A DNA stretch of 64,000 bases from a virus (Duplodnaviria > Caudoviricetes). The translations under genes and the position numbers were made by a program. Positions 790-8,383 of the stretch are shown one piece after another. Positions within the stretch are counted from its first letter, which is position 1. Every line of letters begins with the position of its first letter. Under the pieces are notes generated by a model. That model did not search any database, had not been told where the DNA came from, and worked only from the letters and a program-made list of their open reading frames with translations. The stretch is taken from positions 738 through 64,737 of IMG/VR virus record IMGVR_UViG_3300035113_000078; one strand, written 5' to 3'.

Positions 790-987
790 ATGAAGCGGCG
801 GCATGACGAAGACTGCGAGTGGCGCTGCGCGGGTTGCGGGCGGATGCTTGGCCTGCTGCTGCGGAGCGGGCGACTGCATCTTCGGTTTGCGCATGGAGAG
901 TATGTCGTCGGCCTACCAGCATCGAGCTCTTGTGCGAGGTGCCATACGCTCAACGAGACCGGAGGTGAACGAGTGAACTCGCAATAG
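790..987 (+). CDS. Small Com-like zinc-finger regulator
   Basis: WRCAGCGRMLG...CARCHTLN resembles the Mu Com four-Cys pattern; start uncertain (721 or 790). Confidence 0.65.
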   Translation: MKRRHDEDCEWRCAGCGRMLGLLLRSGRLHLRFAHGEYVVGLPASSSCARCHTLNETGGERVNSQ

Positions 988-1027
988 CTGTATATCCACG
1001 CTTTCATTCGAACAGTGAACACTTCTC

Positions 1028-1093
1028 GAGGCGCTCGACGCCCTTTTCTCGGCCCTGGTGAGGCGCTCGACGCCCGGCCGAAAGGTCGGCGTC
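1028..1093 (+). promoter_or_regulatory. 16-nt direct repeat plus hairpin adjoining the next start codon
   Basis: GAGGCGCTCGACGCCC at 1028-1043 and 1060-1075; hairpin GACGCC(C)GGCC-GAAA-GGTCGGCGTC ends just before GTG 1095. Confidence 0.55.
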
Positions 1094-1094
1094 T

Positions 1095-1901
1095 GTGCAT
1101 TCTCCTTGGGGGAGCCTACATGCGGCTCTCATTAGATATGTGACAACGCTCACCGCAGCGAAGTGCTTTCAAGCCCTTGGAGACAGCGAGCCACTCTTGG
1201 CACGATTCAAGAGCAGCACTGATCTGCTCGTCTACTTCCACGACGACGGAGACCTCGACGACAAAGATCAGCTCTACGCTTCTCTCGTGCGCGTTGCGCA
1301 AACCCGAGCGGGGCCCGCGCGACTTGCCCATGCGCTCCTCTGGTGCGGGCTGTGGCCGGGTCTCGATCATGTGTATCAGCGCCAGCTTCAGCAGGTCGCG
1401 ACGAACCCCGAGGAGCTGACCGAGGCCATTTCGGTCGCATTCACGACGCTTGTCGGGCGCATGGATCTCTCTCGTGTTCATCGAGTCGCCGCGACGCTCG
1501 TCCGCAGCACGCATCGCCGGGTCATGGATGAGCGGCGACGCGCTGTGCATGAGCTGAACCGAATGGTCGGCAGCTCGGGTGGTGCGGCGGCAGTCCTGGA
1601 CGGCGCGAGACGCGAGATCGGCGAGAGCCAGCCCACGGGGCTGTCGTTTGCCGGAGAGCTCGCCTCCTTGCGCTCGGTTCTCGTGCCCCTGGTGGGTGCC
1701 GACGCGGAGCTGGTGTTGGCAGTGCTGGTCTTGGACTACGACCAGCACGAGGTCGCTACACGGCTAGGGCTGAGTCATGAGGCATCGCGTAAACGCTTTC
1801 AGCGAGCCCTCGCCCGGATTCGCGACCACCTGCGCGTTCAGCGCGGACGTGCGCGCCCAGGGTCGTTGCACGCTCGTTGGCGTAGCAGCACAGGCGAGTA
1901 G
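1095..1901 (+). CDS. Sigma-70/ECF-like transcription factor
   Basis: C-terminal region-4-like HTH: DYDQHEVATRLGLSHEASRKRFQRALARIR. Confidence 0.7.
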   Translation: MHSPWGSLHAALIRYVTTLTAAKCFQALGDSEPLLARFKSSTDLLVYFHDDGDLDDKDQLYASLVRVAQTRAGPARLAHALLWCGLWPGLDHVYQRQLQQVATNPEELTEAISVAFTTLVGRMDLSRVHRVAATLVRSTHRRVMDERRRAVHELNRMVGSSGGAAAVLDGARREIGESQPTGLSFAGELASLRSVLVPLVGADAELVLAVLVLDYDQHEVATRLGLSHEASRKRFQRALARIRDHLRVQRGRARPGSLHARWRSSTGE

Positions 1902-1971
1902 TTTGTCCCAGAACGGCCGACCGGTCCGCGTTTCTTGGTGGATAGGCGAAGACGCACCCAAGGAGCCGGAC

Positions 1972-2433
1972 ATGAATCAGATACAGAGCCCTGTACAGCA
2001 AATGAACCTCGAACTCGAACTGGACCCGCCGGACGACTTCGTCCGCGTGCCAGGCCTGCTTCGCCGCTGGGAGATCGAGCAGGTCGTCACCAGCGGCGCC
2101 GAGTACCACATCGAGGAAGCGGGTGAGCTTTCCGACAAGACCCAGGTGTTCGCGGTGTACCGGCGAGAGCACGCGCGGACGCGCCGCGAGGCGCACGACG
2201 GCGTGCCGGTCGGTCTGACGTTCGACAACCAGCAGGTGACCGTGCGCGCTCGCCTGCTACCGATCGACGGCGGCGAGCCGCTGATGGCGGTCGTGGTTCT
2301 TGGCGACCACCCCGAGGACGCCGCCACCCTGGCCCGGGTTCGGGAGCATCTCGCGAGGTCCGGAACCCCGAGCAGCGATGCGCACGACGCCCGCCACGTC
2401 ACGCCGCGGGCGCAGGAAGGCGCGACCCCGTGA
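1972..2433 (+). CDS. Hypothetical phage protein
   Basis: AAGGAG RBS before ATG 1972; stop overlaps the next start. Confidence 0.65.
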   Translation: MNQIQSPVQQMNLELELDPPDDFVRVPGLLRRWEIEQVVTSGAEYHIEEAGELSDKTQVFAVYRREHARTRREAHDGVPVGLTFDNQQVTVRARLLPIDGGEPLMAVVVLGDHPEDAATLARVREHLARSGTPSSDAHDARHVTPRAQEGATP

Positions 2434-2828
2434 GTGGCAGCATCGATGCGCACGATCCGGCGCGGTCCGCGCGCGCCCGGGTTGATGTTGCGGCAGCTCG
2501 GACCCCCGAGCCGCCGGTGCGGCGACGCGAGCGTGCGCAGAGCGACGCGCGCCTGCAGCCGGATGTACCGTCGCTCGGCGAGCTCAAGGCGCAACATCGC
2601 GAGCAGCACCTCTGTTTCCGGTGCAACCACCACATGGTCTGCGGGATGGCGAAGGCGCTGGACCCCAATCTGCTCGTCGCGATCGCGAGCTGCCTCGCCT
2701 TCGAGCCGGAGGGCTTCGCGGAGCCGAACGATGTACGCGAGCGTCTGCCAGTGGAATCACTCCCAGCACGCGATCAACCCGGTCGAGAAATCGTCCTTGG
2801 CCGGTCCCCGGGAAGGAATCAGCGATGA
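2430..2828 (+). CDS. Hypothetical Cys-rich protein
   Basis: CFRCNHHMVC...SC motif; GTGA/ATGA coupling at both ends. Confidence 0.55.
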   Translation: MSGSIDAHDPARSARARVDVAAARTPEPPVRRRERAQSDARLQPDVPSLGELKAQHREQHLCFRCNHHMVCGMAKALDPNLLVAIASCLAFEPEGFAEPNDVRERLPVESLPARDQPGREIVLGRSPGRNQR

Positions 2829-4099
2829 CGTTGACCATTCACGACTCGCCCTCAGCGAGCGCCAAGAAACTCACGGTCTGGACACATAGACCGATCACGA
2901 GTGGTGGCTGCCTTGCCGGTGGCACGCTGCTCGTGCATGCCGGCAGCGGCTGGCCCATCGCGTTGCGAGACCTGGTGCATCGCCGCGATGGAATCGTCCT
3001 GACGATGCGCGAGGCCAGCGTGCTCACCCTACAGCACCCGGCCGCGTACCTCGAACACGAGCCGGAGCAGCTCTACCGGTTGACGACGTACACCGGCAGG
3101 AGCATCGACGTCACCGCGGACCACCCGTTCCTCACCCGGGACGGGTGGAAGCCGCTGTCGGACCTGAGCCCGGTGGACGCCGTCGCCGTGGTAGCCGAGT
3201 ACCCGCAGCTGTTCGGGCGTGGCGATACCGACGCTAACCTCGTCAAGCTCCTCGCGTATCTCACGGCCAACGGGACGAACAACGACGGAACGGCGCCGCC
3301 GATCACCGATCCCGACGTCTGGGCCGACTTCGAGGCCGCGGTGCAGGCCAAGGAGGACGAGTGCGCGGTCCTCGAAGACGGCGTCGATCGGCGGCGGCTC
3401 TACGTGCAGGGTCCAGCGGGCGCGCACAGCAAGATCCTTCGCTACATGGATATCGTGGGGATCTACGGCGTACAGGCGCGCGACAAGTTCGTCCCCGACT
3501 TCATATTCGGGTTGCAGCAGGACAAGCTGCGGCTCTACCTGAACCGGCTGTTCACCTGCGACGGCGTGGTCGAGACGTCGGGCCGGATTGCCTACCGCAC
3601 CTCGTCGGTGTGCATGGCACGTCAGGTCCAGCACTTGCTCGCCCGGTTCGGCATCGTGTGCTTGCTGCGCGGGCTCGAGCGCGACGGCGACATCGAAGCG
3701 GTGGACCTCTTGATCACGACGAAGACCGACGTACTGCGGTTCCTCGACGACATCGGCTTCATCGGCGACAAGGCAGCTCGCGCCGAGGAGGTGCGCAGTT
3801 CGCTGTACCACACTCGGATGATCGAGCCTCCGCCTGACCGGCTAGGGCCAATCTTGTTCGACCGCGTCTACATGGTGGAACGCACCGAGAGCGCGCCGGT
3901 CTACGACCTCGCCATCCCCGAAACCCACAACTTCATCGCGAACGACTTCATCGTTCGCACGTCGAACTGGAGTTCTCTGATGGCGTCCGGGTGCGGCGAC
4001 GATGACACGTCGGACGTCGCGCGGTTCGGCGGGCGGGCCCGGGAGTCCGTCTGCCGCCCGTCCAACACGAGAACCGACGGGACCGACGGGAGCCAGTAG
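2825..4099 (+). CDS. Stand-alone intein-derived protein (Hint + LAGLIDADG)
   Basis: Block A CLAGGT, block B VTADHPFLT, LAGLIDADG-like LLAYLTANG and LNRLFTCDG, block F/G VYDLAIPETHNFIANDFIV ending RT instead of HN. Confidence 0.88.
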   Translation: MTLTIHDSPSASAKKLTVWTHRPITSGGCLAGGTLLVHAGSGWPIALRDLVHRRDGIVLTMREASVLTLQHPAAYLEHEPEQLYRLTTYTGRSIDVTADHPFLTRDGWKPLSDLSPVDAVAVVAEYPQLFGRGDTDANLVKLLAYLTANGTNNDGTAPPITDPDVWADFEAAVQAKEDECAVLEDGVDRRRLYVQGPAGAHSKILRYMDIVGIYGVQARDKFVPDFIFGLQQDKLRLYLNRLFTCDGVVETSGRIAYRTSSVCMARQVQHLLARFGIVCLLRGLERDGDIEAVDLLITTKTDVLRFLDDIGFIGDKAARAEEVRSSLYHTRMIEPPPDRLGPILFDRVYMVERTESAPVYDLAIPETHNFIANDFIVRTSNWSSLMASGCGDDDTSDVARFGGRARESVCRPSNTRTDGTDGSQ

Positions 4100-4108
4100 G
4101 AGGGCGCC

Positions 4109-5239
4109 ATGTTGCCGACACAGAAAACGCCGCCCAAGCCGAATCTCCACGATCTGACCGTGCTCGTGCACGGGCCGCACAAGTTCGGAAAGTCGACCCT
4201 GTGCGCGCAGTCCGATGGTGCACTATTCCTGGCGACCGAGCCGGGGCTGAATCACCTCGAGGTCTACCAGCAGCCGATCAGCACATGGGGCGAGCTCCTG
4301 GCGGCCGCCAAGGAGATCGCCGAAGGCAAGCACACGTTCCGCACGATCGTCATCGATACGGTCGACAACGCGTACCGCATGTGCGCCGAGTACATCTGCC
4401 GGAAGTACGAGGTCGAGCACGAGAGCGATCTCGAGTACGGCAAGGGCTACGCGATGGTCAATGCCGAGTTCCATCGCGTGCTGAACAAGCTCGCGCTCCT
4501 CCCGTACGGGCTGTTCCTCGTGTCGCATTCCCAGGAGAAAGAGATCGAGACCCGCACCGGCAAGTACACCAAGGTCGTTCCGACGCTGCCGGATAAGGCG
4601 CGCAAGCTCGTCCTGGGCTTGGTCGACATCATCCTGTTCTGCGACCTTGAGCAGGTGACGGGCGGTGACGGAAAGCCGGCGTACCGCCGCGTGCTTCGGA
4701 CGAAGCCCAGCATGGCATACGAGGCCGGCGATCGCACTGGCCGGTTGCCCGAGGTCCTCGAGCTGAACTTCGCCGCGTTCGCCGCTGCATTCGCCCAGGG
4801 TACGCCGGGATCCGCTGTCGCCGCTGTCACCGCTGTGGCGGCGCCGACGGCGAGTTCTCTGCGGTCCAGCGCGCAGCCTCGCGAGACCGCGGGGGTGATC
4901 GACAAGGCGCCGGGCGCGATCGACCCAGCCGCCGCCGCCGCTCCGGCGCACGCGGTGGCTGTGACCAGCCAGGTCTCGTCCGAGGCTTCCCCGACGGTAT
5001 CGGCGGCGAGCGCCGTGAGCGCAGCGAGTTCGGCGGCGGCAGCAACGCCACGGGCCAACGCGCGATCGACGGGTCCCGGTCGGCCGGCGACCGCCGACAC
5101 GGCAAGGCCTCGCGTCGACTCGGCGGCGATCGCGAGGTCGGCGGCCAGCTCGCCGCGCCTTCGCACGGCGGGAGCCTCTACCACAACCACCAGCCCCGCG
5201 GCCGCGAGGCCGCGCACGACGTCAACGGCGAGCCGCTGA
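4109..5239 (+). CDS. AAA_24 / Sak4-like phage ATPase with Ala/Ser-rich tail
   Basis: Walker A GPHKFGKST, Walker B TIVIDT; upstream of a DUF669-like gene; AGGAGG RBS. Confidence 0.85.
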   Translation: MLPTQKTPPKPNLHDLTVLVHGPHKFGKSTLCAQSDGALFLATEPGLNHLEVYQQPISTWGELLAAAKEIAEGKHTFRTIVIDTVDNAYRMCAEYICRKYEVEHESDLEYGKGYAMVNAEFHRVLNKLALLPYGLFLVSHSQEKEIETRTGKYTKVVPTLPDKARKLVLGLVDIILFCDLEQVTGGDGKPAYRRVLRTKPSMAYEAGDRTGRLPEVLELNFAAFAAAFAQGTPGSAVAAVTAVAAPTASSLRSSAQPRETAGVIDKAPGAIDPAAAAAPAHAVAVTSQVSSEASPTVSAASAVSAASSAAAATPRANARSTGPGRPATADTARPRVDSAAIARSAASSPRLRTAGASTTTTSPAAARPRTTSTASR

Positions 5240-5260
5240 CGTCCCACGACAGGAGTTCTC

Positions 5261-5746
5261 ATGAACGGACATGAATTTCCGGGCGATGACGCGCCCGAGA
5301 TCGACCTCTCGCAGTTCGACGACGACTTCGCCGAAGCGCCCGTCGAGGAGCGCGAGTTCGACCAGCTGCCCGATGGCAAGTACCAGGTCCAGGTCGACAA
5401 GGTCGACCTGACGACCGCCAGGAGCTCTGGCAACGCGATGCTGAAATGGACGCTGCGCATCCTCGGGCCCAACGATGCCGGGCGTCTGCTGTGGCGCAAC
5501 AACGTGATCGCGACCAAGGAGAACGTGCGCTGGCTGAAGAACGATCTTCACGTCTGCGGCCTGGAGCTGGTGCGGCTGTCGGATCTCCGAGATCGGCTTC
5601 CCGAACTGCTGGACGTGCAACTCGAGGTGACCAAGCGCACCAAGGGTGATAACGTCAATATCTACTTCAATCGCCGCCTCGTGCTGGATGAGCAGGGCAC
5701 TGGAGGCGTCTATGGCCGGGCCATGCCCGACGACAGCTCGTTCTGA
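5261..5746 (+). CDS. DUF669-like putative ssDNA-binding protein
   Basis: FDQLPDGKYQVQV...SGNAMLKWTLRI pattern and position after the AAA_24 gene. Confidence 0.8.
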   Translation: MNGHEFPGDDAPEIDLSQFDDDFAEAPVEEREFDQLPDGKYQVQVDKVDLTTARSSGNAMLKWTLRILGPNDAGRLLWRNNVIATKENVRWLKNDLHVCGLELVRLSDLRDRLPELLDVQLEVTKRTKGDNVNIYFNRRLVLDEQGTGGVYGRAMPDDSSF

Positions 5747-6179
5747 TCGCGCCGTCGTCATCGTCGACACCCGCGAACAGCAACCCTACGTGTTCGATCC
5801 AGAGCGCGTCACAATCGTGCGTCGCAAGTTGCTCGCCGGCGACTACTCGCTCGAGGGCCACGAGATGGCGATCGCCGCCGAGCGCAAGTCGCTCGACGAC
5901 TACGTTGCCTCGGTGGTGACCGAGCGGGATCGCTTTGCCCGCGAGCTGCAGATTCTGTCCGACTATGACGTCGCGTGCGTCGTGGTTGAGGCGACGCTCG
6001 AGGACGTCCTCGCACACCGCTACCGATCCGGCGCACATCCCAACGCCGTGCTCGGCGCAACCTTGTCGATCATCATCGACAAGAACGTCCCGGTGTTCTT
6101 CTGTGGCGACCGGCAGATCGCTCGCCGCTTCGTCGAAGGGCTGCTCTGTCGCTACCACAAGAAGGTCCAGGGCGAATGA
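5712..6179 (+). CDS. ERCC4-domain nuclease
   Basis: VDTREQ, LLAGDYS and ERKS motifs; start uncertain. Confidence 0.88.
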   Translation: MAGPCPTTARSDRAVVIVDTREQQPYVFDPERVTIVRRKLLAGDYSLEGHEMAIAAERKSLDDYVASVVTERDRFARELQILSDYDVACVVVEATLEDVLAHRYRSGAHPNAVLGATLSIIIDKNVPVFFCGDRQIARRFVEGLLCRYHKKVQGE

Positions 6180-8383
6180 CGAGCCCCGCCTCGGCGGTCA
6201 GCGAAGCCCTCGCGACGGCGCGCGGCACCGTCGAGGCGTTGTTCTTCTCCAGCCCCAAGTTCTCCGCCGGGCGCCTGCGGACCGGCGACGGGCAGATCGT
6301 GTCGTTCGCGGGCTCCTTGATGGTGCGCGTGCACGACGCCGTCGTGCTGCATGGCCGCTGGGAGACCCACGCGAAGTTCGGCCGCCAGCTCAAGGTCGCC
6401 CGCTTCGAGTTCGACCAGCAGCTCGGCCCCACCGGCCTGGCGCACTACCTCTCGAGCAACCCGTCGCTCAAGGGCATCGGCCCTGTCAAGGCGCGGCGAA
6501 TCGCCGAGGCGTTCGGCGACGACTTCGATCGCGTCATCGACGACGAGCCAGATCGCGTCGGCCGGGTTGCGAAGCTGCCGCGCGCCGCGCTGCAGCTCTT
6601 GCGCGAGGAATGGCTGCGCACGCGGTCGCTCAACGCGAGCCTGGCCTGGATGTCGGCGTTCGAGCTCACGCACCACCAGATGACGACGCTCATCGCCCGG
6701 TACCAGAACTCGGTTGTGACCGTGCTGAAGGAAAACCCCTACCTCCTGGTGCGCGAGATCCCGGGTTTCGGGTTCAAGCGCGTCGACCAGGTCGCGCGCA
6801 AGATGGGCACGCCGAAGGAGCACCCAGGGCGCATCCGCGCCGGCGTCGTGCACGCGGTCGTCGAGCGGCTCGAGCAGGGCGACTGCTGGGTCGATTACGA
6901 GGCGCTGATCGGCCTGGCCAACGCGCTCCTCGTCATGGACATCGCCGATAGCCGCGATCGGATCGAGGCGGCGCTGGATACGTTAATCGAGGACCGCACC
7001 CTGTCCTGCGTGTCGCTCGGCGGCCGCTTCCTCGTCGCTCTGCCGCACATCGTCGAGATGGAGCAGGACCTGGCCGAGTTGTTCACGACCAGGCTGGGGC
7101 CGAACCCACACCTTGCGCACATCGATCCAGCGGTGATCGACGCGGTGGACACCAGCCTGAACGCGGGGCAGCGCCGCGCGCTGCGTGCAGCCGTCGAGTA
7201 CAACCTCGTCCTGGTGAGCGGCGGCGCCGGCGTGGGGAAGACCCGGCTCGTCGCCACGCTCACAAAGGTCTACGAGCTTCGATCTGGACGGGTGGCCCTT
7301 GCTGCGTCGACGGGGAAGGCCGCGAAGCGGCTCGAAGAGGTCGTTGGACGCAAGGCGTTCACGATCCATCGGCTGCTCGGCTACAAGGGCAAGAACTTCT
7401 CCCGGGGCATCGACGACCCGATCGACGCCGATGTGTTGATCGTCGACGAGGTCTCGATGGTCGACATCCCGCTCGCCTGGCACTTGTTCCGCGCCCTCGA
7501 CTTCGCACGGACGGCCGTCGTGCTGGTCGGCGACCACAATCAGCTGCCGCCCGTGGGTCCCGGGAATCTGCTCCGCGACCTCATCGACCGCCAGCCCATA
7601 CCCACGGTCATCCTCGACCAGGTCGTCCGCCAGGCCGGTGCACTCAAGGAGAATTCGATCGCGGTGTTGCGCGGCGAGGTGCGGAAGACCGCGGCGCCTC
7701 AGGAGGACGGCCGGTCGCCATGGGTCGTGGCAAACCAGTTCACCGACGTGCTCGCCGCGCAGAACTACGTGCTCGAGCTGTTCGACCACATCCTCGTCGA
7801 GCAATTCGGGTTCGATCTGCTCGCGCATGTTCAGCTCTTGACGCCGACCCGCAAGGGGCCGCTCGGCGTCGACGAGCTGAACATCCTCCTGCAGCAACTC
7901 GTGCAGGAGAAGCTATGGCACGTGGTCGTCGCGCCGCTGCGGCCGGGCCGGCGACCGGACCTGCTGAACCGAGACCGCGTCATCCAGAACCGCAACAACT
8001 ACGAACTCGGCGTGATGAACGGTGCGATCGGCGTCGTCACGGAGAAGGGCGACAAGCACGGTGAGCTGAAGGTCCGGTTCGATGATCTCGAAGTCGAGTA
8101 CAGCGCCGAGACGGTCGGCGAGCTGTCGCTGGCGTACGCGCTCACCGTGCACAAGTACCAGGGGTCTCAGATCCCGTGCGTGGTGCTGCTCGTCCACAAG
8201 GCGCATTCGTTCATGCACCACCGGAACCTGTTTTACACCGGCGTCACCCGCGCGCAGGAGACCGCGATCGTCGTCGGCGATCAATGGGGTATGCGTGCGT
8301 GCGCCGAGAAGGAGCAGGTCGAGCGTCGCAAGACGTTTCTGTCGGTGCTCGATCTGCCGCGCTGGAAGGGGAGCGGGGGGTGA
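6176..8383 (+). CDS. recD2: RecD2-like SF1 helicase
   Basis: HhH KGIGP, GGAGVGKT, VDEVSM, GDHNQLPPVGPG, YALTVHKYQGS, YTGVTRA. Confidence 0.92.
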   Translation: MTSPASAVSEALATARGTVEALFFSSPKFSAGRLRTGDGQIVSFAGSLMVRVHDAVVLHGRWETHAKFGRQLKVARFEFDQQLGPTGLAHYLSSNPSLKGIGPVKARRIAEAFGDDFDRVIDDEPDRVGRVAKLPRAALQLLREEWLRTRSLNASLAWMSAFELTHHQMTTLIARYQNSVVTVLKENPYLLVREIPGFGFKRVDQVARKMGTPKEHPGRIRAGVVHAVVERLEQGDCWVDYEALIGLANALLVMDIADSRDRIEAALDTLIEDRTLSCVSLGGRFLVALPHIVEMEQDLAELFTTRLGPNPHLAHIDPAVIDAVDTSLNAGQRRALRAAVEYNLVLVSGGAGVGKTRLVATLTKVYELRSGRVALAASTGKAAKRLEEVVGRKAFTIHRLLGYKGKNFSRGIDDPIDADVLIVDEVSMVDIPLAWHLFRALDFARTAVVLVGDHNQLPPVGPGNLLRDLIDRQPIPTVILDQVVRQAGALKENSIAVLRGEVRKTAAPQEDGRSPWVVANQFTDVLAAQNYVLELFDHILVEQFGFDLLAHVQLLTPTRKGPLGVDELNILLQQLVQEKLWHVVVAPLRPGRRPDLLNRDRVIQNRNNYELGVMNGAIGVVTEKGDKHGELKVRFDDLEVEYSAETVGELSLAYALTVHKYQGSQIPCVVLLVHKAHSFMHHRNLFYTGVTRAQETAIVVGDQWGMRACAEKEQVERRKTFLSVLDLPRWKGSGG

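Follow-up and report, generated by a model that had tools for sequence, protein, structure and literature searches.

An orphan intein gene under purifying selection beside the intein-free Sak4-like ATPase gene of a phage

Inteins are usually viewed as parasites, which are either held in place by the need for splicing or lost. Free-standing homing endonucleases of phages, which sit beside their likely target (intronless homing), and the nicking homing endonucleases of phage introns are GIY-YIG or HNH enzymes and are not known to derive from inteins; in phage, a nick can suffice for gene conversion. To our knowledge, the well-studied inteins that left their host gene and were reused are limited to yeast HO and the related WHO elements. 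Among prokaryotes, one extein-less intein was found in the literature, a dead pseudogene (Arth_1007).

In the account of Coughlan et al. (2020, eLife, PMC7282813), HO is the domesticated form among the HO/WHO genes, and WHO elements are intein-like, devoid of exteins and of motif G, and located beside their target FBA1 together with duplicated fragments of that target. Arth_1007 of Arthrobacter sp. FB24, as reported by Tori and Perler (2011, PLoS One, PMC3196547), is an intein ORF of prophage origin flanked by tiny exteins (52 and 14 aa) that match nothing; this class 3 intein has lost its block B His, does not splice, was mis-annotated as a DnaB helicase and was read as an inactive pseudogene.

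The orphan gene described here lies in a viral DNA stretch of 64,000 nucleotides (the window) and resembles HO and WHO, as described in that account, in being a Hint and LAGLIDADG gene of its own, without exteins and without motif G. Like WHO, it adjoins a specific gene, here an ATPase gene, and starts with a relic of the 5' end of that gene, a likeness which fails in four related loci (L010, L013, L016 and L018). The yeast proteins, in the same account, are eukaryotic, bear a C-terminal zinc-finger domain and have kept endonuclease activity, whereas the orphans are found in prophages and have no added domain, a disordered tail and no first catalytic Asp. Unlike in WHO, it is the 5' end of the target gene that is present as a fragment, and this fragment opens the ORF in frame. 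The sequence relationship with HO/WHO is presumably no closer than among inteins generally, and no tandem arrays or clusters of decayed copies were seen among the orphans. Because the nearest relatives are fused AAA_24 inteins, an origin independent of the yeast family is assumed. Two comparisons had been drawn in a first-pass annotation of this DNA: the analogy with HO is apt in the light of the published description (PMC7282813), and that with WhiA is weak. WhiA, a bacterial transcription factor, does reuse a degenerate LAGLIDADG scaffold for DNA binding; however, it is chromosomal and ancient, has an added HTH domain and no Hint domain, and its structure (3hyi) matched the orphan model weakly, at rank 37 of the fold search (E 1.4e-4), so that kinship is limited to the LAGLIDADG fold.

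Class 1 P-loop inteins (46 fused AAA_24 proteins, and TliVMA, PhoVMA, PI-PfuI and PI-SceI) have their fold and blocks in common with the orphan, and the fused AAA_24 inteins share its ancestral insertion point; unlike them, the orphan has no functional exteins, has HN and the first Asp replaced, and could not be excised. It resembles the phage genes of intronless homing in its position beside a likely target site, its own activity being putative. Arth_1007 is a single case, whereas the orphan clade counts 63 proteins and is under purifying selection, with the source gene next door and fused sisters known.

The features of the locus are collected in Table 1. The TGA of the upstream ORF, referred to as 'up', overlaps the ATG of the orphan (ATGA, 2825-2828), and 9 nt, which include a GGAGG, separate the orphan stop from the ATPase ATG. 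No promoter-like site was found in 900-6300, where terminator-like sites were no commoner than chance. The ATPase belongs to PHROG 124 (Sak4-like ssDNA annealing protein, E 1.1e-48), and 'up' matched no Pfam or PHROG family. In 13 loci, 'up' immediately precedes an orphan or a fused ATPase, and the DUF669 gene is syntenic in nearly all related loci. A blastn search of 2400-5300 against phage records gave no match, and tblastn of the orphan retrieved nothing beyond distant inteins in terminase, portal, RecA and RNR genes (22-35% identity).

Table 1. Positions of the orphan gene, its parts and its neighbours in the window.
Feature	Position	Strand	Details
'up' gene, conserved	2430-2828	+	132 aa; Cys/His-rich motif; stop overlaps orphan start codon
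Orphan intein gene (extein-less intein homologue)	2825-4099	+	424 aa; Pfam Intein_splicing (E 2.8e-15) and LAGLIDADG_3 (E 3.3e-11)
N-extein relic of ATPase	2825-2908	+	28 codons; Gly at Walker A Lys position
Intein homologue proper	2909-3961	+	residues 29-379; alignment, codon comparison, AF2
Hint-N	~2909-3208	+	
LAGLIDADG domain	~3209-3829	+	
Hint-C	~3830-3961	+	
C29 codon	2909-2911		
Block B H100 codon	3122-3124		
N149 codon	3269-3271		lost first Asp
D246 codon	3560-3562		kept second Asp
R378-T379 codons	3956-3961		replacing HN
Weak relic of C-extein start	3962-3997	+	from S380 on; alignment
Unconserved tail and stop codon	3998-4099	+	predicted disordered; pLDDT <50 for residues 389-419
Intein-free Sak4-like AAA_24 ATPase	4109-5239	+	Pfam AAA_24, E 2.2e-46
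Empty intein site in ATPase	between K28 (4190-4192) and S29 (4193-4195)	+	
DUF669 / SSB-like partner gene, same module	5261-5746	+	Pfam DUF669, E 8.6e-18; PHROG SSB families

Comparison of these loci shows, at the level of sequence, that the orphan is an ex-intein whose ancestor, equipped with a LAGLIDADG endonuclease, sat at the Walker A GK/S of a phage Sak4-like ATPase, and that this intein, together with 28 N-extein codons and a C-extein stub, now makes up an ORF of its own immediately ahead of an intein-free ATPase gene. Descent from the intein of this ATPase family, already proposed in the first-pass annotation, is indicated by the N- and C-extein relics, by an equal N-extein length and by syntenic fused homologues. 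Indeed, residues 1-28 of the orphan, which precede Cys29, and residues 1-28 of the ATPase can be aligned gap-free with the 9/28 identities reported earlier, and their BLOSUM62 score of 26 in this fixed register was matched by 7 of 100,000 shuffles; when Met1 was left out, 8/27 identities remained and the score was matched by 49 of 200,000 shuffles. Against the family, significance was found in fixed register and not in local mode: a PSSM of 45 fused N-exteins, scored in the fixed register, gave the window relic 10.8 bits (reached by 6 of 20,000 shuffles), and a local hmmsearch with a profile of the same 45 N-exteins gave it 0.7 bits, which 2773 of 20,000 shuffles reached and which is not significant. 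In that local search, the less decayed orphans P0031 and P0032 obtained 15-17 bits (0/20,000 shuffles), and the claim for the window relic is therefore based on the fixed-register tests and on such intermediate sequences. At the DNA level, merely 36 of 84 bases match the ATPase.

The other lines of evidence come from the relatives. In the two nearest groups, Cys1 is preceded by 27-28 residues in each of the 38 full-length orphans, and group B orphans retain HN and Ser followed by 7-8 C-extein residues. Among 116 aligned homologues, 46 AAA_24 ATPases carry an intein at GK/C...HN/S of Walker A, which bears out the insertion point and the following Ser that had been claimed for the window. These fused homologues are 43-67% identical to the window orphan, and 'up' and DUF669 flank fused and orphan loci alike. 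The N-extein of the window ATPase is identical at 27 of 28 residues to that of an intein-bearing relative (P0069), and its 30-bp empty homing site (4178-4207) has no second copy within the window. On the C-side, 45 residues follow T379, AAA_24 similarity is absent, and the mean pairwise identity within group A is 0.75 for the intein, 0.51 for the C-extein start and 0.19 for the tail; residues 389-424 contain no zinc finger and no further Pfam domain.

It had been proposed that the phage escaped the intein by duplicating the host gene. Such a duplication is one possible route, and recombination with an intein-free module, or homing of the WHO kind, would give the same picture. The tail and the upstream region do not align: the 160-nt stretches preceding the orphan and the ATPase gave no alignment with each other, no ATPase-like peptide is encoded in the two remaining frames of 3955-4110, and no alignable source of the tail was found upstream of the orphan.

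Residue conservation supports the view that the splicing chemistry of the orphan clade has decayed and that the window orphan is splice-dead. The block A Cys and the block B Thr-x-x-His are kept in the window copy (C29, T97 and H100); by contrast, block G reads R378-T379 in place of the penultimate and terminal HN, with S380 next, where HN-S is kept in 51/51 fused homologues, and the complete ATPase is a separate gene and not a pair of functional exteins around an in-frame insertion. Of the LAGLIDADG acidic pair, the first position is N149 and D246 is kept. The replaced HN, the Asn at the first acidic position, the C-side of about 45 aa, the intact 424-aa frame and its arrangement for translational coupling were all as first described. 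In the fused proteins outside the clade (n = 49), all eight catalytic positions are conserved, including the first Asp (48/48) and the second Asp/Glu (48/48). In the 65 orphans, Cys1 is found in 41, the block B His in 11, the first Asp in 9, the penultimate His in 18 and the terminal Asn in 21. The first LAGLIDADG Asp, whose loss came early and extends to two fused relatives, is replaced in 56/65 orphans by various residues (N, S, A, R, T and L among others), and the second is present in 65/65, an invariance which could be structural. In an alignment of 109 sequences, conservation of K300 reaches at least 90%.

A further reading is that the Hint domain still cleaves or splices its mini-exteins and so sets free an activated N-terminal piece or a small peptide. 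Ten orphans (nine CQNDHNS and one CQDDHNS) do retain Cys1, HN and Ser+1, Cys1 is present in 41/60 orphans with a residue at that column, and the window copy keeps its block B Thr and His. However, Arg occupies the penultimate His position in the window orphan and in 39 others, the terminal Asn is present in merely 21/64, the block B His is missing in 53/64 (mostly Gln in relatives), and a subgroup of 8 orphans without N-extein and Cys1 is conserved in the same way, so that we regard protein processing as highly improbable.

The AF2 model of the orphan, computed from a 109-sequence alignment, has a mean pLDDT of 85 and is folded over residues 29-388; a model from a 34-sequence alignment (pLDDT 50) was discarded. 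Its best Foldseek matches are endonuclease-bearing inteins, with 7qsu first (E 4e-22), then PI-PfuI and PI-SceI. The predicted structure has the two LAGLIDADG helices and the pseudo-dimeric fold, and matches PI-PfuI, PI-PkoII, PI-SceI and I-DmoI. A Hint fold is indicated by AF2, by Foldseek and by a profile search that matched DnaB mini-inteins (E 7e-20).

The loss of splicing residues and of the first endonuclease Asp, an unconserved and predicted disordered tail and the single precedent of the Arthrobacter intein, as reported (PMC3196547), would all suit a non-functional relic, that is to say a decaying intein pseudogene awaiting deletion, as would the neutral decay named earlier as a possible objection. 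Selection on the protein makes this very unlikely. The 63 extein-less copies, distinct full-length proteins with 55-86% identity to the window copy, group together in a single clade (SH-aLRT 99), and no frameshift or internal stop was found in any of 17 orphan loci (9 complete, 8 cut by contig ends), the frames being intact at divergences up to dS > 1. NG86 dN/dS ratios were 0.18-0.25 among close orphan pairs and 0.17-0.37 among fused pairs. Between the window and L008, dN/dS was 0.18 over 353 codons (bootstrap interval 0.12-0.26; highest value among 300 resamples, 0.35), and the ML omega was 0.07. The Hint and LAGLIDADG parts are equally constrained, with an omega of about 0.2 in every domain. 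In terms of sequence evolution, these data show purifying selection on the Hint and LAGLIDADG fold, the second LAGLIDADG Asp and the conserved Lys, and they agree with the earlier suggestion that a splice-dead protein has been kept.

The same constraint bears on the suggestion that the ORF is kept open merely to bring ribosomes from 'up' to the ATPase. The ATGA overlap, the 2-38 nt that separate the orphan stop from the ATPase start in 8 loci, and the promoter and terminator predictions given above for 900-6300 are compatible with translational coupling; yet coupling selects against stops and not for an amino-acid sequence, which is constrained in every domain. The orphan is, moreover, kept where no ATPase follows, a DnaG-type primase gene taking its place directly after the orphan in L010 and no ATPase being in reach in L013, L016 and L018; it is kept in L017 too, at a distance of 1.2 kb from the ATPase. 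A role as a mere spacer is hardly credible.

The main rival is a selfish element of the WHO kind: a free-standing homing, perhaps nicking, endonuclease would cut sensitive ATPase alleles at Walker A and would have been copied in next to the gene, bringing a resistant 5' end with it, while the former 5' end would persist as the N-extein relic that now starts the ORF. We consider it possible, albeit a minority reading. The second LAGLIDADG Asp is invariant, the layout mirrors that given for WHO elements, which lie beside FBA1 together with duplicated pieces of it (PMC7282813), and an active mobile endonuclease would show purifying selection too. Two fused inteins are nested among the orphans on the tree, so that the orphans form no exclusive clade, and orphan monophyly was rejected by the AU test (p 0.005, for a group named after the tree had been seen); such intermixing fits a mobile element as well as repeated exaptation. 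The orphans of L014 and L020 are close (dS 0.39) and their ATPases distant (dS 0.85), which points to exchange of the ATPase gene at the locus. Against this reading stand the absence of the first catalytic Asp in most orphans, at a freely variable position, and the lack of a zinc finger or other added DNA-binding domain and of decayed tandem arrays. The orphan dS is similar to that of 'up', the ATPase and DUF669 within the same genome pairs, and the gene was therefore inherited with its neighbours, recent transfer not being evident. Four loci, as stated above, have an orphan and no adjacent ATPase. Finally, in 80 viral contigs with a related intein-free ATPase, retrieved by profile search (66-74% identity), the orphan was found in 0/80, as was 'up'.

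Other searches complete this distribution. Scans of viral contigs with the 'up' profile and with P0031 gave no matches, and of 401 genomes from the class of a Kofleriaceae MAG, 6 contained 'up' and 2 an orphan or intein, too few for a presence/absence analysis. The orphan is not universal beside 'up', its slot being occupied by a PD-(D/E)XK nuclease gene in L143 and by unrelated genes in L144. In L014, it stands beside an ATPase re-invaded by a different, intact intein, and three further contigs (pairs P0004+P0063, P0005+P0065 and P0007+P0069, joined by the equal lengths of their contigs) would have the same combination. The orphan thus does not exclude other inteins from the ATPase, and an escape, if there was one, need not have lasted.

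From a functional point of view, the reading which we favor somewhat over all others taken together is that the orphan is an intein-derived protein which the phage has retained for a task of its own, probably the binding or nicking of DNA at specific sites, as fold and residue conservation suggest. Against it count the patchy occurrence of the gene (L143, L144 and the 80 contigs with an intein-free ATPase), the re-invaded ATPase of L014 and the nesting of fused inteins among the orphans. The task would need the folded intein body without splicing, and would most likely consist of sequence-specific binding of the DNA of the recombination/replication module, or of its single-strand nicking by means of the surviving half-site. 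The target may be the ancestral homing site within the ATPase gene, and the orphan would be expressed from an operon shared with the ATPase and the Cys/His-rich 'up' protein. A bolder proposal, which we put forward only as a speculation and consider rather unlikely, is that soil Myxococcota prophages hold a bacterial-virus counterpart of the WHO-to-HO transition of yeast: a freed Hint-LAGLIDADG protein would act at the Sak4 locus as a nickase with a single half-site or as a DNA-binding factor, for example by starting recombination-dependent replication or biasing gene conversion, and would interconvert with in-gene inteins, serving as a reservoir for re-entry into the ATPase.

What appears new here is a whole clade of extein-less, apparently splice-dead inteins under purifying selection in prophages. 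With the source gene next door, known fused sisters and relatives whose ATPase was re-invaded, one locus displays every stage of the homing cycle: the occupied site, the orphaned intein with an empty site, and the re-invaded site. Two questions thereby become testable, namely to which new uses the body of an intein can be put, and by what route an essential gene can shed an intein that is unlikely to be deleted precisely.

A last observation concerns annotation. Several orphans were named "replicative DNA helicase" by JGI, owing to their likeness to DnaB inteins, a trap for annotators; in this DnaB-helicase type of misnaming, they resemble Arth_1007.

Re-examination of the ORF, domains, residues and layout of positions 2825-5239 bore out every sequence statement of the first-pass annotation, and confirmed its observation of an orphan (extein-less) intein gene beside an intein-free ATPase gene. 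The locus is a recombination/replication module of a provirus (the IMG/VR class of the 64,737-base record), as indicated by its gene set: the ATPase gene is followed, in order, by genes for a DUF669/SSB-like protein, an ERCC4-type nuclease, an ExoV/Dda-like helicase and a primase (PHROGs). Only 9 nt, with GGAGG inside, separate the orphan stop from the ATPase ATG. In the window copy (WIN), C29 and block B T97/H100 are present, R378-T379 stand where HN is expected, S380 is followed by 44 more residues, N149 replaces the first LAGLIDADG Asp and D246 is the second.

Features of the orphan intein locus in the window
Feature	Position	Strand	Remarks
ORF	1777-2433		Resembles an N-terminal domain fused to the "up" protein in relative loci L010, L016 and L017
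"up" gene	2430-2828	+	Its end is the ATGA that starts the orphan
Orphan intein gene	2825-4099	+	424 aa; Pfam Intein_splicing (E 2.8e-15), LAGLIDADG_3 (E 3.3e-11)
D154-G155 of the orphan	3284-3289		Possible relocated acidic residue
AAA_24 ATPase gene	4109-5239		Pfam E 2.2e-46; PHROGs Sak4-like ssDNA annealing protein, E 1.1e-48
Walker A coding sequence	4178-4207		Ancestral homing site, candidate target; occurs once in the window
C-terminal end of the ATPase	4780-5239		Low-complexity tail, ~150 residues, Ala/Ser/Thr/Pro-rich

Among 5.8 billion proteins searched, 134 matched at E <= 1e-5, and 116 of the 120 matches listed were aligned. The AAA_24 homologues with an intein at the Walker A site, which the first-pass annotation had proposed to look for, were indeed found: 46 of the 116 are AAA_24 ATPases (441-723 aa; P0110 and P0115 are partial) with an intein at GK/C...HN/S. 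Four are other P-loop proteins with an intein at the equivalent GK/C site, and one, P0070, comes from a fused gene that a nonsense codon interrupts. The other 65 are orphans without exteins, about 360-430 aa long, two being fragments.

The orphan is shown to be a descendant of this ATPase's intein. In the register set by Cys1, the 28 residues before it share 9/28 identities with the ATPase N-terminus, and the BLOSUM62 score of 26 was reached by 7/100,000 shuffles; without the trivial Met, 8/27 residues are identical and 49/200,000 shuffles reach the score. At the same fixed register, a PSSM of 45 fused N-exteins gave the window relic 10.8 bits (6/20,000 shuffles). The similarity, whose lack of significance against a family profile the first-pass annotation had named as refuting, thus held in anchored tests, but not in a local hmmsearch with the profile of the same 45 N-exteins, where 0.7 bits (2773/20,000 shuffles) was not significant. 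Less decayed relatives settle the matter, and, as judged from their sequences, the flank similarity is real: the group B orphans P0031 and P0032 reach 27 bits with the PSSM and, in hmmsearch, 15-17 bits (0/20,000 shuffles for either), and group B ends in HN, Ser+1 and 7-8 residues matching the C-extein start, then a stop. In the two nearest groups, each of the 38 full-length orphans has a stretch of 27-28 residues ahead of Cys1, exactly the length of the ATPase N-extein. The window's two N-extein copies match in just 36/84 bases of DNA, which indicates that the orphaning event is old.

A tree was built from 112 intein domains, with 4 short rows excluded; in it, 63/63 orphans fell in one 65-row clade together with the fused P0029 and P0041 (SH-aLRT 99), with the other 42 AAA_24-fused rows, the 4 other P-loop fusions and P0070 outside. 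Constraining the orphans to an exclusive clade cost 63 log-likelihood units (AU p 0.005, for a group defined after the tree and a quick-search tree). This topology reflects either several orphaning events or the re-entry of an orphan-lineage intein into the ATPase, at three changes each. The differing orphan ends fit several origins: group A, that of the window copy, ends in RT with a long tail, group B in HN-S with 8 residues, and a third group has lost both N-extein and Cys1. The earlier interpretation, that the phage escaped the intein by duplicating the host gene and kept the splice-dead protein, perhaps as a DNA-binding regulator or nickase, was partly supported: intein origin and retention were supported, the duplication mechanism and the function not shown.

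In the fetched loci, the orphan always lies after "up", the ancestral place of the ATPase start. Six loci (L009, L012, L015, L020, L027, L044) have the window's order of orphan, intein-free ATPase and DUF669 gene, and in L017 a 331-aa ORF stands between orphan and ATPase. In L035 (a Kofleriaceae MAG) and L022, "up" is followed by a syntenic fused ATPase, the L035 intein being 70% identical to the orphan. The window ATPase and P0069 are identical at 27/28 N-extein positions and nearly so in the core, and the P0069 intein is intact, so that the window's empty site is filled in close relatives; P0069 and the group A orphan P0007 come from contigs of equal length and probably share one contig. In L014, the orphan (stop 4601) precedes an intein-bearing ATPase (start 4604, ORF 668 aa), whose intact intein is of another lineage, about 54% identical. 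The orphans of L014 and L020 are close (dS 0.39) and the adjacent ATPases distant (dS 0.85), with an intein in the L014 ATPase only; this ATPase gene, together with the second intein, was apparently acquired by exchange.

From a structural point of view, the AF2 model (109 sequences; mean pLDDT 85, pTM 0.82) is folded over residues 29-388 and disordered over 1-17 and 389-419. Its best fold match is the endonuclease-bearing intein TliVMA (7qsu, E 4e-22), followed by PhoVMA, PI-PfuI, PI-PkoII and PI-SceI, also endonuclease-bearing. Eight catalytic positions (Cys1, block B Thr/His, two LAGLIDADG acids, penultimate His, terminal Asn, Ser+1) were compared. All are conserved in the 49 fused proteins outside the orphan clade (48-49 each). 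P0029 and P0041, fused and inside the clade, have complete splicing residues, and their first LAGLIDADG acid is already Asn. Among the 65 orphans, Cys1 is retained in 41, the block B His in 11 (Gln in 46), the penultimate His in 18, the terminal Asn in 21 and Ser+1 in 38; the first LAGLIDADG Asp remains in 9 (Asn in 34, others varied) and the second in all 65. This pattern implies that splicing is dispensable and the canonical two-Asp cleavage site broken, one half-site and the whole scaffold being retained. K300 is conserved at >= 90% over the 109 sequences. D154-G155, five residues past the lost first Asp, occurs in 98% and 97% of the orphans and in P0029 and P0041, and is variable in other fused proteins; on this alignment, the acidic residue may have moved here. 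R236 and D302 are further clade-specific conserved residues.

The splicing residues and one catalytic Asp are thus lost, and the folded body is under purifying selection. No frameshift or internal stop was found in 17 orphan loci (9 complete, 8 cut by contig ends). For close orphan pairs, dN/dS (NG86) was 0.18 for WIN-L008 (dS 0.42, 353 codons; bootstrap 95% interval 0.12-0.26, maximum 0.35 in 300 resamples), 0.19 for L016-L017, L014-L020 and L013-L014, 0.20 for L008-L036, 0.22 for WIN-L036 and 0.25 for L016-L018, compared with 0.17-0.37 for fused close pairs; ML omega was 0.07-0.09. Neutral decay, raised by the first-pass annotation, is at odds with these ratios of 0.18-0.25 and the 17/17 open frames, and the omega values are incompatible with a recent pseudogene. 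A coupling-spacer role would put no constraint on amino-acid sequence; constraint was seen in Hint-N, LAGLIDADG domain and Hint-C alike. In group A, pairwise identity averages 0.75 over the intein body and 0.58 over the N-extein relic (0.69 in the final 15 residues); the C-extein relic averages 0.51 and the tail 0.19. In the same genome pairs, orphan dS is near that of the flanking genes (WIN-L009: orphan 0.75, "up" 0.97, ATPase 0.66, DUF669 0.51), which shows that the orphan is co-inherited with them and evolves in the manner usual for phage proteins. Alongside this vertical inheritance, the orphan also persists in some genomes where it has no ATPase: in L010 the orphan directly precedes a DnaG-type primase, the entire ATPase-to-helicase block being absent, and in L013, L016 and L018 unrelated genes follow.

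PI-SceI contacts DNA through both its Hint and endonuclease domains. The orphan protein would be retained for recognising a long DNA site, the remaining capability of the intein body; the ancestral homing site is a candidate target, and the surviving D246 half-site may permit single-strand nicking. The main rival is a selfish element resembling the yeast WHO genes. These are intein-like with neither exteins nor motif G, have their target FBA1 as a neighbour, and home in a way that leaves pieces of the target gene in place (PMC7282813). The orphan layout recalls theirs, but as a mirror image, since here a 5' ATPase fragment supplies the ORF start. Four findings count against this rival: the first LAGLIDADG acid varies freely, orphan dS is on a par with that of neighbours, some orphan loci have no ATPase, and the orphan is absent from 80/80 related intein-free ATPase loci. 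The orphan is a prophage counterpart of extein-less intein derivatives.

A full-text literature search covering few subscription journals found no conserved extein-less intein family in phages or bacteria. Closest to it in print are the work on yeast HO and WHO (PMC7282813) and a single intein pseudogene, Arth_1007, described by its authors as the first case of a decayed intein that a genome has kept (Tori and Perler, 2011; PMC3196547). The available text of a 2025 preprint on actinobacteriophage inteins covers non-canonical endonuclease architectures and leaves out orphans, and in that of a review on mobile-element recruitment inteins appear solely as splicing switches. Among the matches listed, many orphans are labelled "replicative DNA helicase" by JGI, evidently owing to the likeness of their Hint part to DnaB inteins; Arth_1007 bore the same mis-annotation (PMC3196547). 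Where a source is named, the orphan clade comes from Kofleriaceae (Myxococcota) and a "Deltaproteobacteria" MAG, and the fused inteins outside it from Bryobacterales, Acidobacteriota and other MAGs. Among 401 genomes sampled from the Kofleriaceae MAG's class, "up" occurred in 6 and an intein or orphan in 2. In L143 (682-1713, genome G108), a PD-(D/E)XK nuclease (Pfam PDDEXK_1, E 4.7e-19) lies between "up" and an intein-free ATPase, in the slot held elsewhere by the orphan. Given this sparseness and replacement, the orphan is a lineage-specific, non-universal member of the module.

The "up" gene precedes both orphans and fused ATPases. Its product, without a Pfam or PHROG family, has an invariant motif H-L-C-x2-C-x-H-x2-V-C ... 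C in the window and an alignment of 13 loci, and may be a small DNA-binding protein that binds zinc. P0111, P0112, P0114 and P0116 (633-699 aa) carry the same intein lineage at a GK/C P-loop site (33-36% identity to the window copy in the alignment, 37-40% by BLASTP); with no AAA_24 match and a different C-extein, they place it in a second ATPase family. In P0070 (L040:4560-4700, Acidobacteriota MAG), TAG replaces the Trp codon at C-extein position +3, and the frame ends two residues past the intein with the remaining ATPase still in frame; this reflects either an ATPase broken in one step or an error of sequencing. In the fused ATPase of L050:3540-4700 (Acidobacteriota MAG), a stretch free of N bases, intein codon 67, immediately ahead of block B, is an in-frame stop. 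The low-complexity ATPase tail is common to relatives, fused ones included, and ends in a conserved motif, ...PRTTST..R.
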